A DNA stretch of 58,272 nt, filler included, from Dirinaria sp. TL-2023a (lineage: Eukaryota), in NCBI GenBank assembly GCA_051941275.1. It is 5 parts of 5 records of this genome, joined end to end, with 100 filler letters (N's around TTAATTAATTAA, not from the genome) between each part and the next. Parts side by side here need not be neighbours in the genome. Positions count along the whole stretch, not along the records: positions 46,722 to 58,272 come from JAVEBF010000836.1; 4 more parts are not named here. One strand, given 5' to 3'. The position numbers and the translations under genes were made by a program. The notes below the pieces were generated by a model, which worked only from the letters and a program-made list of their open reading frames with translations, did not search any database and was not told the origin of the DNA. Below are positions 28,627-58,272 of the stretch, piece after piece (position 1 is the stretch's first letter; each line of letters starts with the position of its first letter).

Positions 28627-28642
28627 GGTACCTTAAGGTACC
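28627..28642. repeat. Perfect 16-bp palindrome GGTACCTTAAGGTACC
   Basis: Self-complementary sequence; related versions at 28375-28389 and 28967-28980. Confidence 0.9.
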
Positions 28643-30614: not shown

Positions 30615-30644
30615 TATTAGTATTGGTATTAGTATTAGTATTAG
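30615..30644. repeat. (TATTAG)n microsatellite
   Basis: Five hexamer units, one of them TATTGG. Confidence 0.85.
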
Positions 30645-31540: not shown

Positions 31541-31571
31541 CTACCTGACTACCTGACTACCTGACTACCTG
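31541..31571. repeat. (CTACCTGA)n tandem repeat
   Basis: About 3.9 copies of the 8-mer. Confidence 0.85.
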
Positions 31572-33741: not shown

Positions 33742-34966
33742 TTGTCATGCATCACTTCGCTCGCGCACTCATTGCCAGCGCAGCCGGGCACGACTTCATT
33801 TCAGACTACCCTACACATCATTTCAAGCGATCTTGCCTATTAGCGACTTCATTTCATTTTGCACAGAGCGATGATGCATAGCGTGACGGTGGCGCCTTGT
33901 CTCACATACAGTACACAGACGATACCGGCTGGCGCACGGCATGCGATTTTTGCTAGTTTTCAACATGATACCACCTGTGCTTGATAGCACAACGCGCTTG
34001 TTACTACTATTTTACGGACGATGATCAGATCTCGGCCATGTGAAGAGGCCGAGGAGCACATGAGCGTAGCAGGACGAAGGGTTTCACATGTACTGCCGGG
34101 GAATTCCCTGTTCCGCGAAGCAGCCAGGACCGGTTGCAACGCGAGCTCGGAAACCGCTCTGCGATGGGCCTCAAAACTGCTTTTCGACACGTCTTCGCTA
34201 TTCAGCTCTGACGGAGGTGGAGGTGGAGGAGGCTGAGACGGATCAACGGTGCGGCATGGGCCGGCATCCTTTGTAGATGTACCTCTACCTGCTAGAGCCA
34301 CAATAAAAGTACATAAAAACGGAACGGCTTTTTGATCCGATGAACCTATCTCACTCCTGCTATTGCTACTGAAAATGGGTCGTAACCGTTGCATCGCTTA
34401 TTCGCCCTCCGTGGAATCCGCCCGACTCTCCAATTGCAACGAAATGCGCTCGCTGACTGCTTCAGGGTCTCGTACCTATGCACAACAGCATACTCCAGCC
34501 CCATTGCCGCCTCATGGTTACCCCATCCCGTAGTCATCAGCCGTAAGGTAGAGGTCAGGGAATAGTAATCCTCCTTGATCCGGGCCCTTCCCGCTTCTCA
34601 TCCTGCCCCGTTTCTGTGATTCCGTTTGCTCACGCAATCTGACATGCATACGGCTACACTCCTACTTTTACTCACCGCTCCTTTGCTCTTCTTCCTTTAG
34701 CCTCCCCCGGGGGGGGCGGAAACGTTCAGTGGTTAAATCGGCGAAGATGGTGGGGATGACCCATTTTGTTACCCGAAAGGGCTGCCTGATGTTTCCGTAG
34801 GCGCCCAGGGGTAAGTGGTCTCGCTAAGGTAGGTAGCCCTGTTAACGCACGTTACGATGGCTCGGGATGGGACGCAAAATGGTGGTGTGTGACCCTCGTG
34901 CGTGATGGCGGGTGGTATTTCTGTAAGGCGTCGATTGTGCCGGGGGGGGGTTTTGTGGGTGACATG

Positions 34967-36868: not shown

Positions 36869-37088
36869 ACTCTGGGGCAGAAGAAACCTAGGAGCACGAT
36901 CGTGGTGGATGAATGAGCAGATTGTACACGATGAACAAAAGTCCGCGACTTTCAGCAATGTAAATAGTTAAGTACATAGCAATCAAACAACCATGGATTA
37001 TCATTATTGACAAATGACGCATAGTGCAAAAAACCACAGAAAGTTTTAAACACAATATATTTTTAATTAAAAGATCCCTGTCATCTAA

Positions 37089-37170
37089 GCTCAATTAGCT
37101 CAGCGGCAGAGCGAGAGATTGCAGTCATGTCAATATCTCTAGGTCCATCGTTCGAATCGGTGATTGAGCT
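37089..37170 (+). tRNA. tRNA-Cys: tRNA-Cys(GCA) with 10-nt intron
   Basis: Acceptor stem GCTCAAT/ATTGAGC, D arm GCTC/GAGC, anticodon stem AGAGA/TCTCT with GCA at 37121-37123, intron 37125-37134, T arm CATCG-TTCGAAT-CGGTG and discriminator T. Confidence 0.93.
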
Positions 37171-37764
37171 CATAAACAACAAAACATTTTTATTTTATTT
37201 TTGAAGAATCTTTCAGGCTCAGTAATGCTGTCACTAAATGAAGGCTTATTCTAGGCAAGCACCAGGATATAAGCGTCTTCTAGACTGAAAGTGGTACCTA
37301 GAGCTCCACGCTCCGCAAGCTCTGTAGAGAGAAACATATCCAAGTTGCGCTCTCGATTTCAAAGGCTAAAACCCTTTTCACTCACACTGCTCATGCGTTT
37401 CACTACTCTAGGGATTCTCAATTCTCTTCTATCTGCAACGCTTTGTTTTTGACCCTTCAATTTCCGTTTTCGTTTTTTTCATTGCTATATTGGAGATGAG
37501 TGGGCAAATGAAACAAATTCGGTCGAGCATGGGGCCTCACGCCGCAGGTTACACGGCTGTGCGGAGAAGGCTGCGGTGTTACATGCGATGTGGTCGATTC
37601 GAATCGAGTAGCATTCTCCTCCTTCCCCTGAGAGATTCTCGGGTCGGAAACAATGGCCTTCAAAGCGATGAAGCCGCGTACACCCACTGATGCTCACGCT
37701 TGTGCCGAGTCCCTTGTGATGTGCTGATAGGACTGGTCTACTTACCTTGATAGGCACCTGGCCC

Positions 37765-40700
37765 ATGGACGAGGTTTCTATCGAAGACCTACAAAGGGAA
37801 CTCGGTTGCCTCGAGCCAGGACTTCCCAAAGCTGGTGGGTCATTATTCGAGACACGGCGCTATCAGAGACTAATCAATCCCCAGAGCCGAGGCGAGGACA
37901 TGGAAACCTAGAATGGGGTTTCGATGACCCTCCTGGAACCACATCCCGCCTTGAGCCGCCGTCTAAAATAGGATCAGTATATTCTTTTGGAGAAGACGGG
38001 ACACTGGATTGGACTACTCCCGCTGGACAGCTTCTCTCTGTTGCGAGCTCTATTGACAAAGGATTGGTGGGTATTGAATACAAAAAGAGCGTGGAAGAGG
38101 GCCAAGATTACCATCAAAGAGCAAAAACGCTGGCTAGAGCAGTAAAAGCTCCCCAAGGCTCTGAGTACGGTATCGGACTTTCTCTGGATGTGGGAGTCAA
38201 TCCTTCAGAGGTGTTCTGGGTACACAATCGCTGGCCAAGGTACATTTACCAGCGTGATGGATTGGAAATTAGACTTCAATACTACGTCCAGTCTCAATCG
38301 GTGATTCAGCAGTACCAAATTCGCAACAATGGCCAAGAAGACATATCACTCCCTATCTGATTACTTCTGATGTTTGCTTTCGGAAACATCAGTGGCCTGC
38401 TGGGGCAGCACAGCCCGTCCCGTCTGCCAAATGTTCGGAGAGATTACTCGTTAATCAAAATTCAGAAGTTTTGATAAGGAATCCAGCATACGAAGCGCAA
38501 TCAAGAATGGCTTTCTTTCAAAATGGGGAGAGGCAATCGCTTTGGGTCGATGATGCCGATAATCTGTGGAATGTTCATGAAGAAGATGCAATTGACAGCC
38601 CCCATGGGAGGAAAATCGAGAGAGAAATGAAGAGAGCCAAAAAAAGGATTCGGGATCTTATAGAATCCAAGCAATTCTACTCTGAAATTGATGACTCTGA
38701 TTTTGCTCACTTGTACAAGAGGTACTATGACAGAAAATATCTGTCTCAAGCGAAAAAGCAGAGTGATTTCGCAACATATCGAAACCAAATCATCGTGCCC
38801 GGGATATCCACACAAGAACTTTCTACCGTCATTCAGATATCCACTTTCACTGGAAGCGAAGCATTTCTGAGGGACTCTGCGCCAAGTGGCAGCCCAAATA
38901 CCAGGCAATGGTTTAATTCTGATAAAGAAAATCCTGCAGCAACCAGTATTATGGACAGAAAGAACCGGCTAGCAGCAAGGGCTGGCAAAATCTACCTAAA
39001 TAAATCAGACTCGAGAAGCGAGTTCCTAATCTCCGAGGTTGTCAAAGACTATGTTGGAATTGGCGAAGCTTTTTTGAATACTGCGTGGATTGGTGAGGGA
39101 GAGATCGGCGAGGCAAGATATTATTTTGATATGGCTAACATGATTGCGCAAACTTTCAGCAAGAGAGACCAACGTACTTGGAACAACACTCGTTTCGAAT
39201 ACGCCAAATTTCTTGACGATAACGGCTGGCATCGCACGGCCCTAAGTATCGTGAAAGATCTTAATAGTGACCTTTTCAAGAGAGGGTCTAGAGAAGAAGA
39301 TATTACCGGTCTGTGGACAGTAGTCATAGATCGCTTAGCGTCGATATTTCTAAAGAATCGAAGTTTTATCGACGCAGAGGAGTTGTACCAAAAAGGTTTG
39401 AATCATTTCAGCGAAAACAGCACAGAACCGAACATCAGATCCACTCAGTTCTTGGAGAGGTTGGCCTTCGCCCAAGTATCCCAAGGACATCTCAGAGAAG
39501 CTTACGCAAACTACATGCGCTTGTTAGATCAGCAACCTTCCGCTCGTCAGTCTATTCGAAGAAATCTTGGCTTCATCGAACAACGACTTGAACGATTCTC
39601 AGAAGCTGAGCTACACGATGAGCACTCTCTTGAATGGTCAGGAGGCGGGGCGGATGATGTACTTGCACGAAGTGAGCTTTTCACATGCCTGGATAAACTC
39701 GATGCCGGCGGCGAAGAAAATGCTGACTTTTGGGCGTCAGGCGTCTGTTATGTGGATGTCAACTCTGCACTAGCTAGTTCGCCATCGTACAAAGTGCACT
39801 TCGGCACGGAGCCTTTTTCCTTCGCAATGGCAAGGCAATTGGAAACTCTGCTCTCGGTTTGCAATATTCCGCTTACAGATCGTCCAAGCTATTCTGTTAC
39901 TGCCCTCGTGAACGCTGATCCTCTAAATTGCTTGTATGTGGGTAGAGTTGCGTAGTAGGTCATACAAACTTCTCTATAAGCAGACATTCTGATCTAGAAA
40001 AGTTTCCAATTTAGATTCATGATACAATGCCAAAGGCACATTCGGTCAGTGCAAAAAGACGAAGATAAGAGACACCAGATTCAAGATCGCATTCACTCAG
40101 TCTGTGAAAGTCACCTAAATTGGGTGTTCCGTATTGGCGACATCCTGGATTCTACTAAGACATGGAGCCCTTACTACACGGTAGGCGTTAGGGAGACTGA
40201 AGGGGAGTTGAAAGCCTCACCAGTAAAATCATCCATGGCTTGCTCTGCGGAAGGTGCTTTTCAATTCTTGAAGTTGTGTCTTTATTTGAGTACGTGGGAA
40301 GAAGAGTGGCAATTTGTTCTGGAGCTACTCGATTCGACGTTGGACGGTTGGCTATCGTACCTGAAAAGGAATAAGCACATGGGAAATCTGTGGGTTGAAG
40401 ACGAAGATGTTGGATCCTTCAGTCCGTATGATTCTATATCGGAAGACGTTAGCTACGTCCACCGAACCTATCCTCACTATCGCTTATCGGATGCAATTTT
40501 GGTATGGCTAGCCCTGCTATATATCGAGAAGATGATTGGATTCATCGAAGGGAAATTCGACGCGGAAGCTCTGCAGAATGTAGAGTCCATAGAGTGGAAG
40601 GTGAAGAATGTCCGAGATTCTTTCGAGACGTATCAAGATACTCTGAGCCTACAAAAAGTTCGATCCAGTATAATCGAAACGTTCAGGATTCCCAAAGACG

Positions 40701-43667
40701 GACTGTTTTCCAGCACTTCTGCCTTGCCAGGCTCCCAGGGCCCAGAAGCACAATCACTCATCGGGGACCAGACGGCCAAAAAGCCAGACCAGCAAATCAT
40801 CGCATTTCAAAGAACCGTCAATCTATCTATACTTGAAATCGAACCAACCGATTTCCCCACTATTGAAGCATCGACCCTTGGCTTTTTTGAAGGGTCACAC
40901 GATCATGTTGAGTTCGCTTGGAACGAGTCCCTCCGAGTACAGAGAGAAAGAAATATCTCAAAATTTGAAGATCCTCGGCAAATAGCCTTGACGATGTTTG
41001 CCGCTAGATGTAATTGTGGTTTGGCATCTAGCGCGGGGACAATCGAACAAAGATCAATAGATATGCTACAGCGTGCGCTGTACGACTCCGGATCTTTTGC
41101 GCAGACACTCGTGGAAGATGCCATGGAACCAATAAGCTACTTGAAAGCGTTTACATATGAAACAATGTCTCTGCTGGCCGGAAGCTCATTCAAGGAATGC
41201 CGTGAAATCTTGTAAGTTTCAAAATTGTCATTAAGCAGAAGAATTTGTGCTTGACTCTTCGGCTTTGTTCAAGGATTTCTGCTAATGCTCCTTCAGTTTG
41301 TCCCATGGTCGACAAGAACCTGCTCAACCATCTCCCAATGCATTAGCTGTGACGATGAGATCGAGTTGTTCAACGCAGCGCGCCTTGAACCTGTCCTTAA
41401 GGATGAATCTAAAAAACGTTGATATAAAATTCTTGCCGGCTTGGATGTATTATTACCCAGACTTCATTCATAAGGAAGAATTGGAGATGAATGAAGAAGA
41501 CAATCGTGACCAGCTCAATTCAGTCAAGAGCCTCGTTCCTGCAATCATGGAGTGGAGAGATTTCGGAAAGCCCAGCACACTAGGAAACCGGGTGATTCCG
41601 TTTCAACCTTGTGTGGCAGATTCTGGTAAAAAACAGTCCAGCGACCAGGCATCGGCTGGACGCGTCATCAGTATAGATCGCTATAATGATCGAGGAGACT
41701 TTTTAGCGCGATTGTGTCAGGCTCGGTCGCCGGAGGACGCGAAGGAACGATTGGTTGAGCTGTCAGGCCAAGACAAGGAAAGCGTCCTGAATTGCTGGCT
41801 CACAGCTTCAGAAGAAGAGAAACCCTTTTTCCTAGAATATATGTGTCGCCATAAATCATCAAGGAGCTTCTTTGGTGAGCGCGCCGATTGGCGAGCAAAT
41901 GTGTGGGAAACAGAATTTCACCTGGGTTTTCACGAACTGCTTGGCGCTGGAGTTGATGGCGGAAAAACTACATTGGCTGAGACTGTCAGTGAGGGTCCTC
42001 AATATCAGTCGTCAGCTAGGCAAATGCGCAGCCAGCCGGTCTCTCGGGACCATCATGAAATTCTACCTGTTGCCATAAGCTTTCGTTTTATTGGCGACCT
42101 CCGTGATCAATTTTGGACTTGCTATTTCTTCTCTTCGACTCATGATGGATTCATCGGCTTTGTTGACGAACATTATCGATTGCGTTTCTACGACTCTGTT
42201 AACGGGGATTACAAATTCAGGACTATAGAACATAAAATATTTGCAGGATACTCAGGCCAACGAAAAGTCTTGGAACTTGCTTATGTTGAGAAAGCTCTGG
42301 CGGAAATGAGTCGGAGCGTAGACAAGATTTTGACTGCATTCGAGAAGGACCTTAAAGTGACGCAGTTACAGGGTCCAGCGAACGAGAGACTCGGTTTCAT
42401 CCATGACGCCTCAAGCCTCTACCTAGAGATTGAAGGAAAGCTCCGCGGTGTATCGCAACAGTTAGATAATTCACTCAGGACAATTGAACACTGGGAGAAA
42501 AGAGAAGAAGCCAGGGGAATTCGAAGCAGATGGTCTCCTAAGGATGAAGAGCGCCATGGTGAAAAGCTGAGAAACCTTACAAGGAAATGCAAAGTCATTC
42601 TTCAGCAGTTACGTGTGCAGCAAAGCAGCCTTCAAGAGCAAGTGAAAATCGCAGACCAACGACATATGAATTTGGTAAGCTATAAACAGCTTCAAGAGGC
42701 CCGTATGAGCAACCAGTCTGCAGCAGATGTTCGCTTGTTGACGTATGTCACTATTGCATTCTTGCCGCTATCCTTCTCTTCGAGCTTGTTCAGCATGGCG
42801 AATCCGCCTAGTTTTAGAACATTATACTTCATGGTTCCAACAGCCGCCGTTGCCTTAATAGCGACCATCTTAGTTCTTGCAAATCTGAAATTAATGGCTC
42901 GTCACTGGACCTCGTGGCTGGAAAAATTCAGTGCTGGGACCAGAGAGAAAATGAAAGCAAGTGACCAGTCGCTAGAATGGAAAGATATTTCGAGGCAGCT
43001 TGAAGAGACGATTCAGCGTCGACCATTAAAAATAGATCCCAACCAAGGCCTTCCAGCTGAGAGCTACTGGTGGTATGTCAAGTTCTGGATGTCGTACATA
43101 ATTCAAGGGATGAGAATCCATGTACGTAATGGTATGCGCGCATGGAAAGCTAATCATAAACTACTCATCAGCCGTCCTCACAAATTTATAGCAGCTTTAT
43201 TTTGGATAATGGTTTGTGTCATGATACTATTGGTCCATTTTGTGGTTTCGGTGATAGTTGACACCATTCACTTACTGTGGTTTCTGGCCTGTCAATTGGG
43301 GAGCAAGATGCTTAGCCCCCATTCAAATGATCAGCCTCCTAGGTCAGACGCACTTCCTGACGGAGACGATAATGTCGTAAAATCTGTCGTCAACTGGCTT
43401 GAAAGCCTCCCTCGACCAATTAGGGACTGTATCAGGAAAATGGAATCTGCACCAAAAGGACCATCGGAAAACATTGATCCCCTTGTAGAAGACACAGCAA
43501 CTCTGACTGGCGAAGCTACTGGCTCCCAACACAGTCAGCACAGGATCCCATCACTATCTGCAGCCATGAATTTCTTCCTCGTCGATCCTCGCACTCGATG
43601 GAGGACTCTTTCCGGTAGGAAGCATGATGAAAGGCATACTGTTGCAACCACCAATGAGCCTGTCTGA
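37765..43667 (+). CDS. Large (~1,900 aa) hypothetical protein with TPR-like repeats and a C-terminal CorA-like two-TM module; one apparent frameshift
   Basis: Introns 37835-37884, 39955-40002 and 41212-41296 link the ORFs in frame. A 1-nt deletion in CTCCCTAT (~38352) separates SLP from YLITSDVCFR. TPR-like helices (RLASIFLKNRSFIDAEELYQKGL, RLAFAQVSQGHLREAYANY). A coiled coil precedes VRLLTYVTIAFLPLSFSSSLFSM. Confidence 0.7.
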
Positions 43668-45203
43668 AACCTCTATAGCGCACAGAACGAGGCACGGCTA
43701 GAGGAGCCGGAATCCCTTCCCCCACAACCGCCTCATAGAACGAATTTCCTGAGCAGGTCAAGAGCGCTTAGATCTGGAACGGGCGAATCAGGGATGTCCG
43801 TTTGATTTGATGTGATGAATAAATTCTGGTCGGACCAACTTCTATATACTATATACCAAACCCCTATTTCATATCACCAGAGAAAACGACGATCAAAAGG
43901 TCAACTTGTTTGCTTTGTTGTCCTCTTGCTCCGTATATTCTATCAAATGACGGCTGCTTGTTCCGGCCCTCTAACTGATTCATTGAGCTCATCGCTCATA
44001 GTTGCATTTTTGGTGTTATTGATACAGATTTGACGATTTTTGTGATCGAAGATCGATCTTCACTGACCGGCTAGTCCGTCATCATGTGGTTGATACGTTT
44101 CGCTATGAGTCGTGGGTTCGGTTGGCAGACCCCTTTGATGAGCGTTCTGCCAGGGGATGCGATACACAAGACTCCCCCCTTACAAACGTATTAGGCTTTC
44201 TCATTCTTCTCTCTCTACCATTGTTTTCGCACCTTTGGGATGAAAACGGTCTGCCCTTCCAGCAATACCCCTTGTCGCTTGATGCTTTTGTCTCTAGCTT
44301 ATCCTCAGCTCCAAAGATGCTTGCACACATACACGGTCTTGTGTCACACCTATCCCCAGCTATACCAATGTATGAGTCAGGTAGAGAAACAAGTATTGGG
44401 TGCACGCGTGGGCCGCACCTCGGCTATCTTGTGCGGTTCTCCACCCTTTCGCTACCTCATTTGCCTTTCTCTCGGTCCTCTTGATCATCATATTACGAGC
44501 AATGAAAAGGGAATAAGCAGACCAGCAGCATATCCTGGGAAAGGAGGGAGGATCAGCCAGGGTGGGTATATGGGTGAGGCATGAGCTGGGTTTCTTTTGA
44601 TCGCATGGTCTCGCAGAGTGCTGATTTCAAGCACACAAGTAGTACATCATGGCAAAAACTGTGTCAACGAAATGACAATGCACTAGTCCACCCTTTAAAG
44701 CCCCACTGTTAGACAGGTAAATGGTAAGATTGCATCAATACCACAGTAAGAGAATCTACAAAGGGATCATGAGCAAGTAATTGAGATCAAGTAACGCACT
44801 AATGCAATGAAAACCCACCCAAGCCGCGCATGAGACAATTCATGAATAGTCAAAGAAAAAGTGATTTGGAGACGCAATGACAGAATAGGCGCGAATGGAA
44901 TAATGATCAAAGCACTTTTGGCAGAGGGATTGACAGAAGAAATGAAATAAATATCAGAAGGTTGGGTGGTTGTGAATCTTCAGCAGTTGTAGGAAGTGCC
45001 TGTACGAGTACGATACACACTGTTTGATAGCTTGGCAGTGAGAAATTCCTTGGCATACACTTTTGTTCGGTTGATGTGAAAGCGCAGTATCCTTCCAGGC
45101 TCCAGCTTACCACCACCTTTATACTTGCAAAAGGGGTTTAAGGTCGTTTCATGCCAATGCGGTTATTCAATCTCAAAGCAGCCGGTTGAAGTACTCTCGC
45201 AAC

Positions 45204-46621
45204 ATGGTGGAGCCTCCAATAGTCCTCGATGGAGGCACCGGCTTCCTCAAGGTCGGATACGCCGCCCAGAACTTTCCAGAGCACCAATACCCATCTATTG
45301 TAGGGCGACCTATCCTCCGCTCAGAGGAGCGCTCGGGCGACATCGTGGTCAAAGATATCATGTGTGGCGATGAAGCCGCAGCAGCACGGTCAATGCTTCA
45401 AATTACCTACCCGGTACAGCTCTTCCCCCACCAGCAGCTATAGTAGCTGGCAGACTGGCAGATTGGCAGAGATTGGCCGAGCTCACAACTATGGCAGATG
45501 GAGAACGGCATAATCAAACGCTGGGACGATATGGAACACCTGTGGAATTTCACCTTCGCCGAGAAAATGCAAATCGACACCTCGGGCCGCAAGATCCTCC
45601 TCACCGAGCCCCCCATGAACCCGCTGCGCAACCGGGAGCAAATGTGCGAGGTCATGTTCGAGAAATACAATTTCGGCGGCGTCTACGTGGCCATACAGGC
45701 AGTGCTGGCGCTGTACGCGCAGGGACTTAGCAGCGGCGTGGTCGTGGATTCCGGCGACGGCGTCACGCATATTGTGCCTGTCTACGAATCTACCGTCCTC
45801 AACCACCTAACGCGGCGCCTTGATGTCGCTGGCCGAGACGTGACGAGAAACCTGATCGCGCTGCTACTCCGTCGCGGGTACGCCCTGAACCGAACGGCCG
45901 ACTTCGAGACGGTACGCCAGATCAAGGAGAAGCTTTGCTACGTCTCCTATGACCTCGAACTCGATCAACGACTCAGCGAAGATACGACGGTGCTGGTGGA
46001 ATCCTACACCTTACCCGACGGGCGAGTCATCAGGGTCGGCAGCGAGCGATTTGAAGCTCCCGAATGCCTGTTCCAGCCTCATCTGGTCGATGTGGAACAG
46101 CCGGGAATTGCGGAGTTCTTGTTCAATACCATACAAGCGGCCGATGTGGATATCAGGAGCAGTCTCTACAAGGCAATCGTGCTGAGCGGAGGGAGTAGCA
46201 TGTATCCCGGTTTACCGTCACGGATGGAGAAGGAGATCAAACAGCTGTGGTTGACGAAGGTGTTGCAAGGGAATCCGGAGAGGTTAAATGTAAGCATTGC
46301 ATGATGACCATTTCTCCCCCTCCCTCTCCCTTAGAACCTGAAAGACTGAGCTAGTTTACTAAAAAAAAACAATAATCTGCGAGCAGAAATTCAAAGTCAG
46401 GATCGAGGATCCGCCACGGCGGCGGCATATGGTGTTCCTAGGCGGCGCTGTCCTGGCGAATATCGTGAGTATCATTATTCAAAACTGTCTTTAAATCTAC
46501 CGAGAACAGAGCAGCTAGCTGATATGACGGGTACAGATGGCCGATAAAGAGAACATGTGGATCACGAAGCAAGAATGGCAGGAGCAGGGAGCACGGGCTT
46601 TGGAGAAGCTCGGCCGTCGAT
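45204..46621 (+). CDS. ARP2: Actin-related protein 2 (Arp2/3 complex); stop codon cut by contig end
   Basis: [38 protein letters not shown] and [18 protein letters not shown]. Introns 45414-45497, 46290-46386 and 46465-46536. Confidence 0.97.
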
Positions 46622-46721: not shown

Positions 46722-48054
46722 GCTACTTCATCGTCAGTCTCCGCATCCTGTTTGCCGATGTGATATTTGTAGCCGCGCGTGCGCAAACGATTGAAAAATT
46801 GATCGTTCTTGAACTGAATAACAGCCCTCAGTCTGCGTCTTTTCAAGAAAGATTCTGCTGCGAAGAAACGATCGATGTTATCAGCAAAGTATTCTTCTTC
46901 GTAGTGCCCGTTGACTGCGGCTTTGCAAGTCTCATAGAAATCTAGACTGAGCTGAGTCAAAAATGCTTTACATTCCTACGGCGTAGCTCTTGAGGTACTC
47001 ATCGCCGCTAGAAGAAGCTGTGTCTCCGTGAAAGCTTCTTCGAGATCTTTCCGTAGTTTCGGGAGCTCCTGCTTCACGTGATCGAAGAGCAGCTGACTCA
47101 GACGATTCCTCAGAGACGTAATCCCCACGTATTCTTTGGACAGGGTGAAAAAATTCGATTTTCGGAAGTACATCGTCTCCGAGAAGTTGCGTTGTTCAAA
47201 CGAGTTCGAACCTTCTTCATAACTTCGGTTCTTCAATACATGCCAGTCTAGTTTGAAGAATATATCCTCGTTACGTGCTAGACCGAGAAAGGCTTGTTCG
47301 CTGCCAGAGCCGCGAGGCAATCGATCGGGCTTGATGATGATACCAAGCGTGCGATCTCCTTCGGGATCAACTTTTCTGACCTTCTTCAGGATGCCTTGAT
47401 TAGCATAGTCATTGGTCGCCGAGATCACAGCCAGGCAAATCGTACGAGGTTGAGAAATGTAATGATCGATGATCTCGGTGACTAGCTGGACGTCCTCTTC
47501 GGTCACTCCCTTGATCTCAGTCTGGACCAGACCCGGAAGATCGACCAGCGTCAGTTGAAGTCTAGAACGTTCTCCGATTTCGATACTCAGGACATCTTTG
47601 GCGAAGGCCCTAGACTTGAAAGCAGATGTGTTTTTGAGACCCATAAGAGCCGTTGCCTTGTCTATCAATGAAGGTAGCTCTTCAAAGTCCGAGATGGATT
47701 CTTTGAAATCTTCGATGGGAGCTCGTTCTTCGGCGGGCCTTTCATTGTCCGATATCACTTTGACCGTGATAACGTCGCTCGTCGCACGACGTAAGATGAT
47801 TTCTGTGACGAACCGCGTGTAAGATTATCATTCCTTGGAAATGAGATTTCCGTGAGGGCTTCGAGAACGGAGCTCTTGTCAGCTGATTGATCGCCGCAAA
47901 CGACGAGCTGAAGCAGGGACAGCGTGCTCTCAAGGCCACATTGACGGAGCTGATCGACAATGTTGAGTACGTTTCGTTGTTCGGCGCTTTGAAGGCCTTC
48001 AAGAGACGAGTTTATCTCCAACGATTGAGGCGAATTATCGGTCTCAGGTTTCAT
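46722..48054 (-). pseudogene. Dynamin/Mx-like GTPase pseudogene, 3' truncated by contig end
   Basis: P-loop GDQSADKSS (G>D), frameshift at ~47820 in the CTRF motif, DLPG, IKPD in place of TKPD, DWHV in place of GWHV, and an in-frame TAG at 46976-46978 with homology continuing past it. Confidence 0.9.
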
Positions 48055-50687
48055 GAAGCTGTCAACGTCGGAGAGGTCATCTAATTTGTCCGATATCAGT
48101 AAAGTACAACTGAGGCTAGCGTATACAGGGACGTGGGCACTTACCCGAAGACCTGGCCGAGAAATCTCGATGTGGTGAGTCGGACTCTGAGCACGATGAA
48201 GACATGTTGAATAACCCGGCTGTGTTGATTTGAAACAGTTGCAACAATTGACAATCCTCGGATGCCTACGAAATACTAAATTTCAAGCGTAAGGCACTGA
48301 GATAAGGCACCAGAGGGGCGGTGATATGTGAATAGGCTGTGCTATGAATCACGAATGTAAAAAATCTAATTGAGCAGTATGCATCCGTCTCTGAGCTATG
48401 CGGAAGCCGCTATTCTCTGGTTGGTGGATCTGTCACCGAGAGGTCCTGTCAGTCCACTTCGATCCATATCCGCCTCTTGACAAAAGCTAAATACGAATGA
48501 CTGCTAAGTGGCCCAAAATTTTCAACGGTATTCCCTGGTCGAGTCCAACGGCTAAGAACGCCGCCGGAAATGATGAAACGGATATGCACCGGCGAATTGT
48601 GCTCCACTGTTGTATTTTTGGGTCCTTCAGTGCAGCAGATGACTGGCTGAAATGCGAAGAACAGCAATCGAACCAATGGCTCTCCTATCAACGGCTCCCG
48701 CATAAGTGCCCAAGGTGAGATGCTGCATAGATGGAAGAAGCGATGTGCAGCTCTTTAATGCATAGCCATGTATAAAGCTCCGGCTCACGGAATCCTGCAC
48801 CCGCGGAATAATTGCGTGTAAACTTCAGTCATCATCTCCTCCGCTCTAGATTGTGTCTAGTGAGGCATTGGCTATTGGATAGAATTGGAATTTATTGCAC
48901 ACCATGCTCATGTAGGTCCTGCAAGCTGATGTGCAGAGCAATACGCTTATCATTTTAGCGCGGATCTCAGTCCTCGATCTAGAACAAAAAGTCATCAGAT
49001 TTGCAGTCATCCAATAGATGTTATGTGGTCGATTGTGAGGCTTTGTTTTTGGAAACAAAGGCTTGTGACGATAGACGTTATGCGCGAGTTGCTCATAGAC
49101 TGGTCTTGTAATGTTCTTTCGCCATAAAAGTTGGACGCTGAATTTCCGATATATTAATTATCTCGGCCGCGTCGCCCTTGCATTTCACTGACCTTCTTGC
49201 TCTCGGTTCTCCCGTATTGAAGATCTAAGGAGTGTGGATTTGGGCCACGACAACCAGACGCTCTGGTTCCCTGAAAGTTGCTGCATGTGTTATGGCTCAT
49301 ATACTGGCCTCGACAAGATCAGCGTTCTTCCAACACTACGATTTCCAATCTGGCCCTCATGCCACGCTCCACAAAAAATTTCGTCATTTAGGGAAACATG
49401 GTGGAGAGACATAAGGGGTCGAACAGTAGGGAAAGTCGCCTGGGGCTCAGCATGGCACTGATGATGACGAATTCTCCTCTATGCTATACACAGCCTTTAA
49501 AGCCTCGAGCTTGAAGGAGAACAACGAAGAGAAAAGGAAAAACTCAAAAGCGGCCGAATTTTGCCTCACATTACGGTAGCAATGCCGATATCACAGAGAA
49601 ATGGCAGATGCTTTGCCGGATCGACTCCGCAATCCGGTATCATCATCTATCATTCAACGCAAAAATGTGCAGTCACCCTGTCCTATTCCCAAGCCATTTG
49701 GAGACTAAAATGGTGTAAGGGAGGGAGGTAGGTAAGTAAAGGTACAACGGGTCCATTTCTACCGAGCCCTGTCAGAGCTTAAATCGGCTCGGGACGCTGT
49801 GCCTAGGATCATGTATGGCAAGCCCAGAACGTAGATCCCGAGATAGTGGGCCTGGAAGCGATAGCTTGAGCAGCCTGCGCAAATTATGATGCACAAAATT
49901 CACATATAGTCTAATGAAAAGCTCCTACGGCATCATGGGGTAACCACAAGCTACCGACGAACTGGCATGTCAGAAATTTCGCTCGAGCCGTTATTCGCCT
50001 TCTCAACACTGTCTTGATTGGGCGAGAAAGCACCCTAGTGCAGGAGACCGCGATGTGTCCACACATTATTGATCCATTTTTTGCTCTACCCAAGCTATCA
50101 ACTCAAACTGACTCCATTCTTTCAAGCTAATAACTGGGCTCGATAGAGAACTTAAAATGACGGCAAAAGGCTTAGAAGCCCTTGCCTTTTCTAAAACATT
50201 TGACTTGAATGCATCCTTCATCTTAAATTAAATGGCCATTGAGGTATGTATTGTTTTATCGGCTCTTGCTGAAGCTGCGTAAACTATGTTCCATTCAGTT
50301 ATTAACTACGCCATCAAATCTGTAGACAGAGATACACGGCATTCGGGAAAAGAGGAGTTTCCAATTATGACAACGTGCGTTAGTCCTGTGCGACATTGTC
50401 ACGACATCTGAAGATGCGCCTTCAGAGTAGAGATGATTGAGCTCTCAAATTCCGTTTCGTAAGCCTCAGCCCGTGTCATAGCGGCTACTTCATCATCTTC
50501 GATGTTCGAGATACAAAAAAACAAAACGAAAGAAAGATTATCAATACTATTGATCATCTAGACCTTACCGTCTTCAATTGCACATGTGAGTGTATAATGA
50601 TGAGTTACATACCCCCTTTGTTCAGTATTATGCTTGTAATTTCTTAACCTCCAAATTCAAAAGGGCAGGCCAACTGAGCACATTCTA

Positions 50688-51416
50688 GTGAAATCCGAGG
50701 TTACAGGCCTAGCAATGCAAGCAAAGAATTGTCAGAAGAAGTATTTCGTAACTCTTAGTATTACGAGACTCGAAACTACTTATACAATCATCATTCAGTT
50801 AAGATCGTCATCCAACTGCGCGTCAGCCAAAACAACAGAACGACAAGCAATCGTGACTACAGCTCAGACTCCAGTGTCTGTTGCCAGTCAGACCCCAAGT
50901 TCTAGTAATCATGAAAATAGCTCGGCTTCAACAATTGGAATCACTTTAGGATGCATCATTTTAGCTGTTCTACTTTTGCTTCTCATTTGCTGCATCTCAA
51001 GACAGCAAGAGAAGTGTCCACGGCGGCCAATAGCAGAAGCCCCGGGGCCTCAGGGACCGGCGGGATCGGAAGGCCCACAAGGAGCTCAGGGTCATCCTGA
51101 ACTTCAAGGGGCAGCTGGTCCATCCGGACCTGCTGGAATGCCAGGAGTACCTGAAACGCCAGGGGCAGCTGGTCCACCCGGACCTGCTGGAATACCAGGA
51201 GTACCTGGACCACCAGGGGCAGCTGGTGTCCCGGGGCCAGCTGGGATACCAGGAATACCTGGACACCAAGGACCACAAGGGATTCCTGGGACTGCACGCC
51301 TAGAAATACGTAATCTCCAAGGGCTCCAAGGCCCGCAGGGCGTGCAGGGCGTGCAGGGCGTGCAAGGCGTGCAAGGCGTGCAAGGAGTGCAAGGAGTTCA
51401 GGGACCACAGGAATGA
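50688..51416 (+). CDS. Single-pass membrane protein with Ser/Thr stalk and C-terminal collagen-like Gly-X-Y repeat; start uncertain, possibly degenerate
   Basis: TM segment [21 protein letters not shown] followed by ~40 Gly-X-Y triplets from 51045. Several Gly positions are changed to Glu. Confidence 0.65.
51108..51269 (+). repeat. Three 54-nt tandem repeats within the collagen region
   Basis: Copies start at 51108, 51162 and 51216 with GGGGCAGCTGGT. A (GVQ)n 9-nt array follows at ~51339-51401. Confidence 0.85.
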
Positions 51417-51613
51417 TGATTGTTCCCTCGATCCAATTATGGAGCGATATTATATATTTGACTTTGTTAATTCCGCGATTGAAGTAATATCTTTGCCGTC
51501 TCGCAAGTTTTGAAGGATAAGAGATTCAGTGACTTGAGGCAAGGGCCTCGGAATTCTGCGCCGAATTTAGCTTTCTGGACTTAGCGGTTCCCCTTTTCCA
51601 CATCGCCTGCATT

Positions 51614-52181
51614 TCACCTGTAGAGCCTCGAAAGCTTTATTTGAGCGTAAATGGACTCCATGAATTCCAAAGGTTTCAAGGGCGTAACGCATCGAGAAGA
51701 ATATCTATCCATGGCGACGTCTCTCAAGCCTGGAATATCATAACGATCGCCAAGTGCAAACATCCGGGCGTGGAGCTCAAGTAAAGAATTATGAGATGAA
51801 GCTTCTGGTTCGGCGGCTTTGGGGATGTCGTCGTCATAATTCATACTATACAAGAAAATGAGCATCTTCTTTAGTTCTAGATATGAGAGATCCGCCATTT
51901 CTATGCACCAGCGAAAGTCTCCTGTTTGACAATCTCAGCAATATTTTGGAGGCTTGGAAATTTTTTACATTAAATTCACCTAATCATGCTTTACAGAAAA
52001 ACCTCGATTTGGTGGTCCTTGAAGGGTCCAGCTTCATGACTCGAGGTGAGATCGATAAATTCACCTTCGTCTCGAGATTCGCGCAACGATGAGCTTTCAA
52101 GGAACCCATCACACAAGCTAGATTTTACACTGAGATTGCAGAAAGAAGTTTTGAACTAAAAGAGCCGCCTTTTGATGCCAT
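51614..52181 (-). pseudogene. BTB/POZ-domain pseudogene
   Basis: GEFIDLT..., SRFFCKA*LGEFN, MLIFLYSMNYDD and LHARMFALGDRYDIPGLRD.A...Y. Stops and frameshifts in the 5' half. Confidence 0.75.
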
Positions 52182-52785
52182 GTAAGCCTGTGAGGTTTAG
52201 GCTTATCGCAGCTTGAAGATGACGCTAGAAAGCATTTGCAAAGTAAATCTTCTTGAGAAACCTCATACTAATTAATTGTCTCACATGTGGCGCTTTTGAG
52301 TTGACACGAGAGATCTGAACATCGGCCGGGCGAACAAGAGCGTTAATTCTGAGTACTAGCAATTCTTTAGCAGCACATCAGCCGTATTTTACGAATTGCT
52401 CAATACTCAGCACGTTCGCATACTTTGAACCTGCGTTGAGATTGTTCCCAATGAGGAAAGTAGAGCGTTTAGCTTGATACTGCTTTTCTCGAGCATGGCT
52501 CGAGCCATCAGCTGGCAAGCTTCCTCATATTCATCCGCTGATAATACTAGTAAGAGTACAAGCTTCTGCAGATGAACAATTTAGTATCAATAGAAGGGGT
52601 CTTGTGGGTATCATCCGTTTCCCCAACCCCAACGCCCTTCGCCACCATCCATACCCACTACACCTCCCTAGCCATATTCGCTACAGTTAGCGTACTGATT
52701 ACGTGTCACTCTTTTTTAGATTAGCCAACCGCCCCTCGTAGACTTTCTTTTAGACGGCAACTAGTCCATATTAATTTTCTCCAGT

Positions 52786-54175
52786 ATGACTGCCAGCTCT
52801 ACTAATGACACGCCTGCAACTGGGGCGGCACTTCCATTCCAGCTGAAAGAACTTCAGCTACAAAAATGCCGTCATACCAATGAAATGATGTACCAAGATA
52901 TCTCTTCCGTGTCTACGGCCCGAACACCGCAGATGAAACGACAGATTTCAACATAAGCCCACTAGCGTCGTCCTGTGATCAAGGAAAAAGGCAAGACATA
53001 TTTAGATTGCAGCTCTGAAAGGCGGCAAGGCGTTTGAACGAGCATTTGCGATGATGGCGCTCTCATGAGCCGAAGTGCAATCTGATGAGCTGAACCTGCT
53101 TCTTGATCTTCGCGTTACAACACGGTCTGCGCAGGCATCATACTGATCTCAACAAGCCGGACTTGTCTCAGACGTCTCTCCTTGTAAGAGAGGTGTATAA
53201 CCGAGTGACAAGCACACGTGTGGAGAGGTGGTAGCGATAGGATAATCCTAGGGGGTCTAGGTGCAGTAGAAGATTAAACCGTGAGGACCGAACGTAGGGG
53301 GAGTGCCCCATACATAAGGAAAGCCCTTGCCAAGGCCTTGGCACGGCCTTGGCAAGGGACAGAGCCGCTGTCGGTTGCTAGGGCCAAAAGTAAATAAGGG
53401 TCCCTAGGGATCAGCGCCTATAGGTCACGTGCTACAACTATAACTACCAGGCATTACACTCCTGATCCTCGACACTCGCGATTTTCCAGAAGAGACATTC
53501 GTCAAAGACTTAAAGATCATGAAGGTTTTTGCGTCGCACACGGACTCTTATCAATGTCGAAATCTCGAGAAACTTCTTCAACTTCGAAAGAGCGACATGA
53601 GATACTACTTTGAAGAGCATTTGACGCAAGAAGAGATGAATTTCAAAGATAGATGCATCGCAACAAATATGCAGAGTTTGATAATTATCGATTTATTCGA
53701 GCTCAAATTTGAGTTAGAAGACAAGAGCGAATGAAGTGAGTGAGCTAAGAGAGTCGTCTGTCTTCGCAAATCGTTCGAAGCTTTTCAAGACACTTTTATT
53801 GCAATTCACGTCGAAGTTCGTAAAGCAATCGCTATTGCAAGTGCCTATTTTGAGAATTTTTGAAATTTTTCAATGGCGACTATGTTATTTGCTCTCAAGC
53901 GCCGCAAGAGAAAGAATCGAGTCATCGTTGATGAATTTGTGACTATGTTCTCTGAAAAATGCTCAATTTCTCACTATTAATCTCTCGATCTCTAACGGCG
54001 TTCAGAGAAAAAAATTGAGCATTTTCACTTAAAGCACATAGGTTCGACGCTCACTGATTGTCGAAGATCGAGCAATTTCAGTGCCTCATCGACGGCAATT
54101 TTCGATCGCTTTACTGGGGAGAAGATCAAGACTGTATCAATCGACTTGAATAATGTTACGTTAGGTCAATCTTGA
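52786..54175 (+). pseudogene. DUF7587-like (putative ADP-ribosyltransferase-fold) pseudogene split by a solo LTR; ends approximate
   Basis: After removing the LTR and one TSD, one frame reads DVPRYLFRVY...EHLR*W...NLMS*TCFLIFALQHG...SLLILDTRDFPEETFVKD...EHLTQEEM...LFEL...*AKRVVCLR...F*NFSMATMLFALK. It has six in-frame TGA stops. Confidence 0.72.
53183..53458. mobile_element. 276-bp solo LTR with 5-bp target-site duplication
   Basis: TGTAA...TTACA termini; identical CTCCT at 53178-53182 and 53459-53463. Excision restores the host reading frame. Confidence 0.9.
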
Positions 54176-54443
54176 CATATCTTTCACAATTGCTAGATCC
54201 TTCGTGTTAAGGACCATATATTGGGCCGCGGTATAAGGAAAAATCTATAAAGATTGTATGCCTATAATGTAAATAATAATGGTGATGCCCCGGGAAAACT
54301 GGGTGCAATCGCCTGCTAAATACACCATGGTGGTCCCCTTGCTCCGGGGGCAAGTCTTCAAAGCATGCCGCCACGACCCGGGGTGCATGTGAAAGGGGCA
54401 AATATTGCGATATCCGCCAGGTGCAAGATGCAAAGCATAAATA

Positions 54444-54548
54444 CTAGTCACCAGAATGCTAGTCACCAAAAGGCTAGTCACCAAAATGATAGTCATGTCG
54501 GAAGAATCGAAAGAAGCCCAGGAAAAATCCTACCCAGGAAAAATCCTA
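54444..54548. repeat. 15-nt tandem repeat (3.5 copies) and adjacent perfect 16-nt tandem duplication
   Basis: CTAGTCACCA-based units start at 54444, 54459 and 54474. CCCAGGAAAAATCCTA occurs at 54517-54532 and 54533-54548. Confidence 0.9.
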
Positions 54549-54690
54549 ACACTTCGTCACAGAAGCCCCTCATCTAACACCAGGCAACCACAGTATTTCC
54601 CTGTTCGCTAAGCTATTTAAAGCCACACGTCAACCGACGTTACATACCAGAGTCACCACCAAATCATAGTATTCCGTCCTCGATTTCACG

Positions 54691-56301
54691 TTAAGCGATC
54701 AGTGAGCAAACTCCTGTGCGGTTACACAGCAAAACCTCCGAATTCAAGATATGTGAATTACGCAAGTATTGGAGACATGCACGGAACTGCCGTTCATTGC
54801 CCACCCGAATTCCTTTGTTGATCAACAAGCACTCACAATCCTCCTTGAAAGCCAACCCAAGATCATCATCTGCCTTGAGAATTTCGACCAGATTTGCCCA
54901 AGAAGGCAGGTTCGTGGACGGGTCAGCAATATCGCCTATGCAAACTATGTCTTGCCGGCTAGGAAGCGAAAGGGGGGCTTGTGTTCGTGATTGTAGTCGT
55001 AGAAGCTCACAAGTTGCATTTCAGCATGGACTGTCAGATTGAGCGAGCATGCTTTCTGGAAATAAGTCTCTGAATCCTCGGTATTCCAGATTCTGGCAAG
55101 GCGAGAAAGATATTCCTCTTCATGCCCTCCTACTACTCTCCGTAGAACGCAGGTAAGAGGAATTTTATCTTTCTGAACCGCAAATCGCGTCTTTGCCGAT
55201 GCCGTCACGATTTCAACGATCAAAGGGTTGAATAAAGAAGGAACTTCAGAAGCAAATTGAGCCAAAGCCTTGAAAGCAATGCCGTACCGACCTAATTTGA
55301 ATATTGTGTAAATCCATCGAAGTAGTGTTTGAGCTGTAGTGGAAAATGCAGCTTTCAAGAATTCGACATAATACCGCTTGGCATCCTGAGCCCACTGTAT
55401 GTGACGAACCAGGATCTTGAGGTCTGGATCGAAAGCCAGATTCTTAATTAAGAATACATATTCGTACCATTCCAAGAACTTCCGAAGCGCTGAACTATCA
55501 GCATGCATCGTAGTCGTGAAGGATTGCATCACACGTGATTGCACGGCTGAGATGAACTGCTCGAAGATGCATTTGGTGATGCAGAGATCCTTGAGATAGT
55601 GTCGTATCTTTACCGTGTCGAGCCGTACGATTCTGATTAGAATTTCGATATAAGCTTTCTGTACGTTGAGTACTGTTGAGAAAGGTATCAGTTCAGTATA
55701 CAAGCTTTTCGTAATCACGCAATGCAATAGAGAGTATACCTCCACTTGCAACATCGTTCAGTACATTCACTAGCTCTCGAAGTTGAACTAAAGTATTTTC
55801 ACGTACTCCGGAATTGCTAGCAATCCGAACAACTGTCTCTTGTGATGACCTCTCTTCAAGACATGCTGTCGACACACTATCGCCATCCTTTTTCGTAGCA
55901 CATATAAGGGCAAAAGAGTCGAGAAACTTCCGTTTAAGTAGACGTTCCCTTGATATCTCAATATTATGAGGATCTTGATCAAGATCATATCCAGAAGGTT
56001 CCCCACGTACAGAGTTGAGCGTGTAGAGAAGAACCGCAGCTTGAATGAATCGATCTCGAGCATGACCGATTATTTCGAGAGGACTCATTTCTTTCATGGA
56101 GTTGAGCTACCGCTGAGAAGGCTGCATTTGAAGAATTGTGTGCGTTTCTTCTATTGATTCTATTTCCTTTTCTTTCTTGATCAATGCTTCTCTTTCTTCT
56201 CTCCGCACGCGAGATTCATGCTCCTCGAGTTGGAGAAAGGATGCTATAATAACGTTAGATTTTGGGCATATATAACCAGCAAACCACAGAAGCAGAGCCA
56301 T
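54691..56301 (-). pseudogene. OTT_1508-like nucleic acid/nucleotide deaminase pseudogene with internal deletion
   Basis: N-terminal LKRKFLDSFALICA...VVRIASN, intron 55673-55739 and catalytic VHAEMQL. The expected SKxxCxxC is absent. The frame shifts at ~54960 into an open 89-codon tail ending at 54691. An in-frame TAG at 56107-56109 separates the upstream 64-aa ORF. Confidence 0.75.
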
Positions 56302-56744
56302 TTTAGGATTACTCTACAGCAGAAGTCGGCATTCAATGCGCGCTCATGCTTACAAGCTATCTAGTGAAGTCTGAAAACTGTGAATACTCTTGACACGATC
56401 CAACAGTGCTAAATTAAATTAGCACGCAATCAGACCCGCAGCTAGAATGAGTCATAAGATCCCTTTTCTGCCACAACGGCCGAGAGAACGGAATTCTATC
56501 GGGTACGATTTCCTCTTCATTATAAGCTTGACTTTTCTGCCCATCCACCGACCCGATAGAGACTTAGAGTTACACATCTGAGACACTGCGCAAGATCGTC
56601 CAAACGGCTTGAGCTTGCTGAGATAAGCAATGCTGTTCAAACGCCAGCGGGATTCCTTCAACTCCCGAGACGCCCTTCTGAAAGAAGCATTCGGGTTCGA
56701 CTGCAATTGAAAAAGCACGAATTACGACGTTTGAATATGACGCT

Positions 56745-57440
56745 CACATTGCGCATTTCTGAGCTTCATCATCTGAGAATAAATTGGACACAATCTTCAA
56801 CGATCTTTTGAAGAAGCTAGAAAATGATCGATTCAAGATAAATGTCGTAAGCTTTATGTGTGGTTCGATCATAATCACGCTACATCCAAAATTGAACAGT
56901 TGATGTACATATGACTCGATCGATCATTTAGTTGCGTACAGCCTGAGGTGCTCGTCGCTGGAAATGTATATGTTGAATCAATTCCGATCTGCCGTAACTC
57001 CACTATGTTTTGCTCAACGAAGATGCTCATGCAAAAGAGGATTCGATGAGTTGTGCAACATGATAACAAGGCCAATAGATATGTTCTTCAAGGTCTAGCA
57101 TGTGATGAAACAACTATGAGCAAGTCCTTGATGCATTATCAAGCATAAGTAAGTGTTCTCGAATTTTTATATTCGCGAGACGCATGACGAACAGTCTTCA
57201 GTCGCTCATTTCTTTGACTCTAGAATTACAAGATAAGCGTTGCTATATAGATATTTGCTTTCACACTAATCAGTCGAATTGAATGTCTGAGTCACTCGAA
57301 TCGAAAATACAGATTATGATTTGCACGCAGATGTTTAGTCTTCAATCATCCTTGATGTCGCTGTGCAGCGTGCGGGGCAAGTACAATGTCAATGCTAATA
57401 ATATGAGATATTTCATTGAGAAGTGCTTTCGATACCTCAT
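56745..57440 (-). pseudogene. Heavily mutated gene remnant of unknown family
   Basis: One frame reads protein-like for about 150 codons (VKEMSD*RLFVMRLANIKIREHLL...HVAQLIESSFA*...QKIVEDCVQFILR**) with scattered stops, in CC/GG-depleted DNA. Confidence 0.4.
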
Positions 57441-58272
57441 GGGACTAGCAAATATAGGCACAAACGAGTGAACTGGATTTGGGCCTCGTCGGCGCCAGAG
57501 ACGTCTATCTAGCAAGCAAGCAAACGAAAACACGACCTTAAAACATGCTGCCTCTAGCGCCAACAACTCCCTCTATCTATGCGGCCGATACCTGGAGTGG
57601 GTGGGTGGGAAAGCGCTTTGCGATGCTAAAATCGAGTGCGATTTGATGTTGAAGCAGACGATGGAGCAATGGTGATAACCAATTCAAGGTGAGGCCCATA
57701 GTGACCTAAATACACACTGCCAAGCCAACTGCCAAAACCTCACTGCTCATGCTGCTAACCGAATTGGGATAGGCCTTGACGATATGCGATATGTGCAAGT
57801 TGCTTTGAGAGCATTGCTTTGCAATCATTGCTTGGAAATCCAATACTTGGAAATCAATACTTTGAAATCAACAAAATATTGCTTAAAAATCAACAATACA
57901 TTGACCTAGATGACAATGTCAGCAACGCACCCGGTAGGCATCTAGACACTTCCCCCTAGCCCTGCTTCTCTGGGAACTGTTCGAAAGGTGTGTCCTCTTC
58001 ATCTTAGATTGTTACTACACAAAGGCCTCTCGTCGCTTCAGAAAATCAAGTACACCACCCTGTCTTTCAAGCAAATGAAGAAGTTTGATTCTTCTCGAAT
58101 ACAGTCCTCGTAAGTATAGGGAGTTAAGTTTCACTCAATCTTCTACGCCCGTAGTCTTAACCTCGTTATAAACAGATCAAAGATGATAGTGATATGTCAT
58201 CACATAGCTTTGCAGCGCGCGCACAATCCGCAGCTGATCGAGAATAATAATACAGCTATCGACGATTATCAA

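Follow-up and report, generated by a model that had tools for sequence, protein, structure and literature searches.

Localised C-to-T hypermutation at CpC in a contig of Dirinaria sp. TL-2023a, probably a variant of repeat-induced point mutation

Which process could remove every CC and GG dinucleotide from stretches of a fungal contig and yet leave CA and TG common? This question is raised by the last of five contigs from the genome assembly of Dirinaria sp. TL-2023a (GCA_051941275.1), which we analysed together as a window of 58,272 nt. The contigs, each of about 11.55 kb and separated by N spacers, occupy positions 1-11621, 11722-23302, 23403-34966, 35067-46621 and 46722-58272 (contigs 1 to 5; contig 5 is JAVEBF010000836.1). 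The genes in the window are of filamentous-ascomycete type by Pfam (SAPS, Nramp, DUF3295 with an AreA-type GATA domain, dynamin), and its top protein matches are lichen-forming Lecanoromycetes. Several genes of contig 5 carry C-to-T mutations almost only at a C before another C, and a new variant of hypermutation resembling repeat-induced point mutation (RIP) fits the data best. The context of the changes was derived at the protein level for three genes, at the DNA level for one gene against its syntenic ortholog, and partly from public reads. The features on which the argument turns are as follows.

53460-54040: saturated CC/GG-depleted tract with a 302-nt CC/GG-free run, which spans the C-terminal half of the DUF7587-like gene plus some 80 nt past its end
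56695-57350: second CC/GG-depleted tract, with the 224-nt CC/GG-free run 57127-57349
46722-48054, minus strand: dynamin-like (Mx-type) GTPase pseudogene (Pfam Dynamin_N/Dynamin_M), codons 1-445, truncated by the contig end, moderately hypermutated
52786-53959, plus strand: DUF7587-family pseudogene, split into three pieces of reading frame (52786-52860, 52866-53177 and 53459-53959)
54709-56097, minus strand: OTT_1508-like deaminase homolog, moderately hypermutated (window product P0136)

An earlier note on this DNA had described 53544-53843 and 57128-57349 as lacking CC and GG while CA and TG remained common, and the dinucleotide counts bear this out. The first stretch (300 nt) holds 0 CC, 0 GG, 19 CA, 16 TG, 24 TC and 34 GA, and the second (222 nt) holds 0 CC, 0 GG, 17 CA and 13 TG, with TC and GA common too. 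The window has no CC/GG-free runs longer than the two in which they lie, both in contig 5 (302 nt at 53543-53843 and 224 nt at 57127-57349). The third-longest run, leaving out those that span an N spacer, is 104 nt, and the longest in contigs 1-4 are 57, 53, 63 and 67 nt. The depletion was not matched by shuffled sequence of the same composition: mononucleotide shuffles gave a mean CC+GG of 21.5 (minimum 9) for the first stretch and 13.7 (minimum 2) for the second, zero was reached in 0 of 10,000 in either case, and 300 block-shuffles of the full window gave a CC/GG-free run of at most 143 nt. Low values of (CC+GG)/(TC+GA) were confined to contig 5, where this index fell below 0.35 in 25 of 113 windows, as against 0 of 453 in contigs 1-4. 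Both tracts (about 53460-54040 and 56695-57350) are discrete and sharp-edged and adjoin normal DNA; the depletion is localised.

Within the tracts, in 300-nt windows, the observed/expected ratio of CC+GG was 0.13-0.23, that of TC+GA 1.4-1.7, that of CT+AG about 1.1 and that of CA+TG about 1.0. As TC+GA rose and CT+AG stayed near 1.1, CC was lost as CC>TC (GG>GA) and not as CC>CT. All seven CC-containing trinucleotides were at 0.23-0.49 of their contig 1-4 frequency in the low-index segments; no other trinucleotide fell below 0.7 of this control, and those containing CpA were unchanged. On the tracts, the classical RIP indices take negative values (TA/AT 0.46-0.62, (CA+TG)/(AC+GT) 1.4-1.5, composite -0.8 to -1.0), so that the pattern is invisible to indices based on CpA.

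The direction and context of the changes can be read from the dynamin-like pseudogene. Its frame is shifted by 1 nt at about 47819-47820, and a single TAG stands at 46978. Compared with P0002, an intact homolog of 668 aa to which it is 92-95% identical, it shows 37 amino-acid differences, 27 of which are explained by a single C>T or G>A in the window. The contexts of these 27 changes were NCC in 23 cases, CCT in two, CCA in one and GCA in one. With a null CpC share of 25.8%, taken from the C/G sites of an approximate ancestor that allow a non-synonymous transition, 23 of 27 gives P=1.6e-10. The lesions that the earlier note had derived from the family consensus, namely GGC>GAC in the P-loop (G59D), ACC>ATC in TKPD (T241I), GCC>GTC (A83V) and CCG>TCG (P102S), were all recovered against P0002. 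At 17 of the 27 sites, the P0002 residue is kept in 21-23 of 23 further homologs (P0003-P0025). The other 10 sites lie mostly in a variable stretch at about codons 394-442, where fewer outgroups side with P0002, and none do so at E405K. At 6 of the 10 differences that are not such transitions, P0003-P0025 carry the window residue, which means that those changes arose in the lineage of P0002.

A scan of metagenomes yielded three near-identical, full-length orthologous loci (L001-L003), whose DNA is 83-84% identical to the window. They are collinear with it upstream to 49672, and the pseudogene therefore stands at its native locus. Where L002 has C or G in the coding region, the window has T or A at 51 of 174 CpC, 14 of 158 CpA, 15 of 195 CpG and 14 of 180 CpT sites; in the reverse direction, the counts are 9 of 102, 8 of 151, 13 of 196 and 9 of 189, respectively. 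Non-CpC contexts thus changed at about 8%, like the reverse direction, CpA did not exceed background (14/158 vs 8/151), and CpC stands apart from the rest with an odds ratio of 4.7 (Fisher, P=3.4e-11). By type, there were 59 C>T and 35 G>A changes against 17 T>C and 22 A>G. Synonymous C>T sites show the same preference, with 21 at CpC and 8-11 in each other context. The 51 CpC changes fall on both strands (35 coding, 16 opposite), interspersed and evenly along the gene. The base at -1 is irrelevant (22-34%: ACC 13/38, CCC 11/35, GCC 15/45, TCC 12/55), and A is favoured at +2, with 25 of 52 CCA changed against 6/35, 10/46 and 10/40 for the other +2 bases. Together with the changes against P0002, these counts establish both the direction of mutation and its CpC context.

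The same counts bear on ultraviolet (UV) damage, which produces C>T at dipyrimidines and to which lichens are exposed. The UV signature comprises C>T at TC, CC and CT, is genome-wide and does not saturate segments. CpT and non-CC TCN contexts are at background in the dynamin gene, and ACC and GCC, changed at 33-34%, are affected no less than CCC and TCC; this is therefore not a UV pattern.

Two further contigs from the metagenome of L003 (L004 and L005) contain the dynamin segment over 4.3 and 3.7 kb, with L003:3674-8010 aligned to L004:1-4337 and L005:1-3744. From L003 to L004, C>T changes occurred at 244 of 593 CpA, 0 of 475 CpC, 2 of 506 CpG and 0 of 589 CpT sites; from L003 to L005, at 167 of 526 CpA, 0 of 400 CpC, 0 of 429 CpG and 0 of 501 CpT sites. 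There were 0-1 changes in the reverse direction. The changes are interspersed on both strands, TA/AT reaches 1.65, and the 15 new stops, 11 in L004 and 4 in L005, are without exception TAA or TAG, as compared with seven of seven TGA in the DUF7587-like gene of the window. These copies represent fresh, textbook canonical CpA RIP of the dynamin segment in a related lichen metagenome. Since the same script returned pure CpA on L003-L005, the CpC result is not an artefact of the pipeline. A relative that is about 83% identical in the dynamin gene thus uses CpA, whereas the fungus of the window shows CpC.

Contig 1 contains a second, distant dynamin-family gene (1144-3511), whose CC/GG content is normal. 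With 22-43% protein identity to P0002, it is too diverged to have served as a RIP partner of the pseudogene.

The CpC context recurs in the DUF7587-like gene. We found 15 homologs; those with a species name are of Teloschistaceae lichens, and PF24494 (DUF7587) is present in most of the 15. In homolog P0121, this domain scores 35.4 bits against a cutoff of 27. By tblastn, the homologs (299 aa) align with the window pieces along most of their extent (residues 1-298 in P0121) at 57-77% identity, although the pieces, read with X at stops, give no Pfam match above threshold. The frame is broken at 52861-52865 and interrupted by a 276-bp element. Against a 60% consensus of 13 homologs, 166 codons were unchanged, 41 differed by C>T/G>A only and 19 differed otherwise, and the 44 base changes comprised 30 at CpC, 9 at CpT, 3 at CpA and 2 at CpG. 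In the CC/GG-free run 53543-53843, not a single Gly, Pro or Trp codon is left in the frame. The gene contains seven in-frame stops, all of them TGA. Six had been named before (53016, 53052, 53091, 53732, 53741 and 53861) as TGA codons standing mostly where Trp is expected, correctly in both respects: five align with a Trp that is conserved in the 13 homologs, and 53016 falls in a variable R/S/A/K column. The seventh, at 52881, aligns with an R/Q column. A-to-I editing that restores TGA to TGG was considered and set aside, since the homologs have Trp, the DNA of relatives has a TGG-compatible G, and Gly, Pro, Thr and Ser substitutions arise from the same process.

The element that interrupts the gene differs from its surroundings.

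53183-53458 (within 53178-53463): 276-bp TG...CA element, flanked by the 5-bp target duplication CTCCT

It looks like a solo long terminal repeat. It is rich in CC/GG (observed/expected 1.21) and has therefore not been hypermutated, which implies either that its insertion postdates the hypermutation or that the element was exempt. A contig from the public lichen-metagenome run X1 lacks it (joint 53177>53459). A contig from a second such run, X2, matches part of it with many transversions, so that the element belongs to a repeat family.

The deaminase homolog is the third affected gene. NCBI annotates its product as a 361-aa hypothetical protein; P0136 itself has no Pfam match, and the homologs P0137, P0138, P0143 and P0146 carry PF14441 (1e-10 to 4e-19). 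The HxE...CxxC deaminase core is incomplete: HAE is kept, and about 166 codons including the CxxC zinc motif are deleted at 54960. Compared with its nearest homologs under an outgroup polarity filter, the gene shows 27 changes of C>T type (20 CpC, 4 CpA, 2 CpT and 1 CpG) and 13 of other kinds. The relic of a nucleic-acid deaminase is thus located within the hypermutated contig. Aligning the pseudogenes to their homologs and sorting C>T by 3' neighbour, as the earlier note had proposed, gives CpC shares of 23/27, 30/44 and 20/27 for the dynamin, DUF7587-like and deaminase-like genes, respectively. The changes are neither spread evenly over contexts nor dominated by CpA.

X1 and X2 contain parts of contig 5, which we aligned at a likeness of at least 80%. 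The window has A/T where X1 has G/C at 291 places, against 71 the opposite way; for X2, the numbers are 141 and 77. Among the 40 of 558 places listed, 27 have T or A in the window, 15 of them at CpC, 5 at CpA, 4 at CpT and 3 at CpG. X1 shares the saturated tract 53460-54040 (8 of 338 positions differ), and between 47525 and 48309 an X1 contig and the window disagree in 20 of 786 letters. At the dynamin sites among the places listed (47247, 47288 and 47469), both runs have the unmutated C/G. As the tract is common to X1 and these dynamin sites are unmutated in X1 and X2, there were at least two episodes, the later one specific to the lineage of the window. The end of the contig is repetitive in both runs.

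57144-58272: multi-copy repeat, represented by several contigs per run

Its summed depth is 16-36, compared with about 5-8 elsewhere, and other copies have C/G where the window has T/A.

We consider it probable that contig 5 records a RIP-like, localised hypermutation at CpC. In at least two episodes, C was converted to T on both DNA strands, in discrete, sharp-edged segments of 0.6 to more than 1.3 kb in which some 30% to 100% of target sites changed. The 5' C of CpC is the base converted, most strongly in CCA, with CpA, CpG and CpT staying at background, and this preference turns TGG into TGA. Genes from families rich in paralogs were inactivated, as was a multi-copy repeat. The agent is most likely a DNA-methyltransferase-like enzyme of RID/Masc1 type, or its partner, with recognition of C at +1 instead of A. 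Three observations argue for this reading: the anatomy of the changes equals that of the canonical CpA copies L004 and L005; the specificity lies 3' of the target, as it does for DNMT-type enzymes; and what was hit is a repeat together with members of families that have many paralogs (dynamin-like, DUF7587, OLD-type deaminase and SesB-type). DNMT-type enzymes read the bases 3' of the target C (CpG, CpA, CHG), and AID/APOBEC-type deaminases read those 5' of it. From the analogy with canonical RIP we infer a duplication trigger, premeiotic timing and an enzyme of RID/Masc1 type. The earlier note had ascribed the pattern to a cytosine-mutating genome-defence process with a context other than CpA. 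Its account of cytosine mutation was borne out when direction, context and localisation were each examined; the defence part is an extrapolation, with a link to repeated DNA seen at the 57.1-58.3 kb end only.

Several observations weigh against this interpretation. X1 covers the dynamin, DUF7587-like and deaminase-like segments by single contigs at baseline depth, and duplicates of these segments were not found within the window; self-comparison of the five contigs gave no paralogous DNA that could be aligned. The case for repeat-dependence is thus built on the 57.1-58.3 kb repeat and on analogy. When the deaminase-like gene is compared with a distant consensus, CpC accounts for only 9 of 20 changes. 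The syntenic non-coding DNA upstream of the dynamin gene (48438-49672) shows a general C>T excess without a clear CpC bias (21/118 at CpC vs 14/120, 18/118 and 17/106 elsewhere). Finally, the relative is strictly CpA, which requires either that the specificity of RID switched recently or that the CpC process is a separate system.

Canonical Neurospora-type RIP, which depends on RID or DIM-2 and converts CpA to TpA, is the closest known process. It acts on sequences that are duplicated within a genome, at lengths from about 0.4-1 kb upwards and with some 80% identity or more. In both processes, C:G>T:A transitions are interspersed on the two strands and occupy discrete segments of graded severity, leaving stop codons and dead genes, and a related lichen fungus has the dynamin segment among its RIP targets. 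However, canonical RIP targets CpA, while the process in contig 5 targets C before C and leaves CpA at background. Its stops are TAA and TAG, and those in the DUF7587-like gene are TGA. Its products score positive for TpA/ApT and low for (CpA+TpG)/(ApC+GpT); on the contig 5 tracts both indices are negative, as is the composite. Editing of the APOBEC3G type likewise produces C>T hypermutation at CC dinucleotides with stops at Trp codons. APOBEC3G, however, deaminates the 3' C (GG>AG, TGG>TAG) of single-stranded DNA in strand-coordinated runs, unlike contig 5, where the 5' C is changed (TGG>TGA) whatever base stands at -1, with changes interspersed on both strands.

RIP-like signatures other than CpA are also on record, and, as here, they consist of a species-specific dinucleotide bias of C>T in fungal repeats: CpT in Botrytis, Sclerotinia and Magnaporthe, CpG in Tuber, Microbotryum and rusts, and TCG in Pucciniomycotina (see Amselem et al. 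2015, PMC4352252, and Horns et al. 2012, PMC3318451). The former paper links the species signatures to Dnmt1-subfamily content and lists CpA, CpT and CpG only, so that the CpC of contig 5 is the remaining fourth context. A kingdom-wide survey of 2025 states that RIP-like defences "share a preference for CpA" (PMC12543289), and van Wyk 2021 (PMC7882544) employs CpA-based indices. In the fungal RIP literature that we searched, supplements aside, we found no report of CpC-dominant RIP or hypermutation; this literature included RIPCAL (PMC2621366), a paper on rRNA pseudogenes (PMC5555474) and lichen genome papers (PMC12542154, PMC3897900 and bioRxiv 10.1101/2025.11.25.690456).

A bolder reading, which we regard as possible but less likely than not, is that Lecanoromycetes have a second homology- or locus-directed mutator, distinct from CpA RIP, that converts C in CpC and best in CCA. 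Related species, or one species at different times, would then apply differing specificities to the same targets, and the enzyme might be a RID paralog whose target-recognition domain has been re-wired, or else a deaminase unrelated to DNMTs. If this were true, a whole class of genome-defence footprints would have been missed, because genome-wide RIP scans are built on CpA indices.

An explanation that we judge unlikely is that a RID-independent cytosine deaminase, for example of the OTT_1508-like or another clade, acts beside canonical CpA RIP, aimed at loci such as mobile, foreign or immune-gene islands and not triggered by duplication. The relative is strictly CpA at the same dynamin gene, so the CpC signature may reflect another enzyme; a truncated OTT_1508-like gene lies inside the affected contig, and duplicates of most affected segments were not found, whether within the window or by the depth of X1. 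On the other hand, the local copy is without the CxxC motif and cannot itself be the agent, and the specificity lies at +1/+2 and not at -1, unlike that of AID/APOBEC or DddA-type enzymes. Changes on the two strands are mixed along the gene, as they are in L004 and L005, and do not form strand-coordinated clusters. According to Iyer et al. 2011 (PMC3239186), the clade shares with AID/APOBEC a loop that sets the choice of mutagenic motif, and its members "might all deaminate cytosine". A commentary (PMC12754623), however, assigns A-to-I mRNA editing to the OLD proteins of this family in Neurospora.

Less probable still is slow spontaneous deamination of 5-methylcytosine at loci where silencing, of the heterochromatin type or by methylation induced premeiotically (MIP), would methylate CpC preferentially. 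C>T at methylated cytosines is a known route, to which Amselem et al. 2015 (PMC4352252) attribute the CpG signatures of some fungi. Silencing is conceivable for the affected segments, as they are pseudogenes and repeats. We know of no CpC-specific methylation in fungi. Moreover, the dynamin amino-acid changes in the lineage of the window are nearly all CpC>TpC with very little else, 6 of the 10 non-transition differences having been derived in P0002, and X1 and X2 retain unmutated C/G at the dynamin sites among the places listed. The near-purity of CpC>TpC and these unmutated sites point to a burst and not to slow decay.

It is very improbable that no biological mutator is involved and that composition by chance, a bias in codons or amino acids, an artefact of assembly or sequencing, or UV damage produced the pattern. 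High TC+GA (1.5-1.7) does occur in the coding region of the dynamin gene as well, which is acidic and GA-rich, but shuffling never reaches the observed depletion, independent X1 contigs share the saturated tract, the changes are polarised against homologs, including at the 21 synonymous CpC sites, and the signal is confined to sharp-edged segments of contig 5.

A CpC-specific version of RIP would complete the set of CpN contexts beside CpA, CpT and CpG. Detectors of the RIPCAL-index or RIPper type, which look for CpA, would miss it, and RIP may be under-counted in lichens and elsewhere. The dynamin locus, CpA-mutated in one lichen fungus and CpC-mutated in another that is about 83% identical, forms a natural pair, through which the determinant of RIP specificity and the deaminating enzyme, a long-open question, become testable by way of the RID/DIM-2 homologs. 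For the reading of pseudogenes, the marks would be TGA at Trp codons, Gly>Asp/Glu, Pro>Ser/Leu, Thr>Ile and Ser>Phe, without the AT- or TpA-rich look of classical RIP.

Contig 5 contains two further features of note.

56658-56876, plus strand: fragment of a lipase-like N-terminal domain of SesB-type NLR/death-pathway proteins, with W>TGA, G>E and P>S
50640-51416, plus strand: collagen-like repeat open reading frame (Pfam Collagen), with a 54-nt tandem repeat in three copies at 51107-51268 (Tandem Repeats Finder)

Pfam gave no match on nine other frames of the contig. With its Mx-like dynamin, DUF7587, OLD-type and SesB-type relics, contig 5 resembles a graveyard of immunity-type fungal genes. 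In contig 3, a gene-poor region upstream of the AreA-like gene (28403-31900) has, with a GC content near 50%, TA/AT of 1.1-2.4 and (CA+TG)/(AC+GT) of 0.85-0.95. Formally, such values are RIP-index-positive, with no enrichment in AT; we do not claim the region as canonical RIP. The collagen-like frame is rich in CC/GG (observed/expected 1.2) and barely affected. The earlier note had read the differences between copies 1 and 2 of its 54-nt repeat as CpC changes; two of the five (51123 and 51154) do fit CpC>TpC or GpG>GpA, which is too weak to count. Beside this repeat, at the end of the frame (51327-51403), lies a tandem array of a 9-nt unit (CAAGGCGTG) that encodes (QGV)n.

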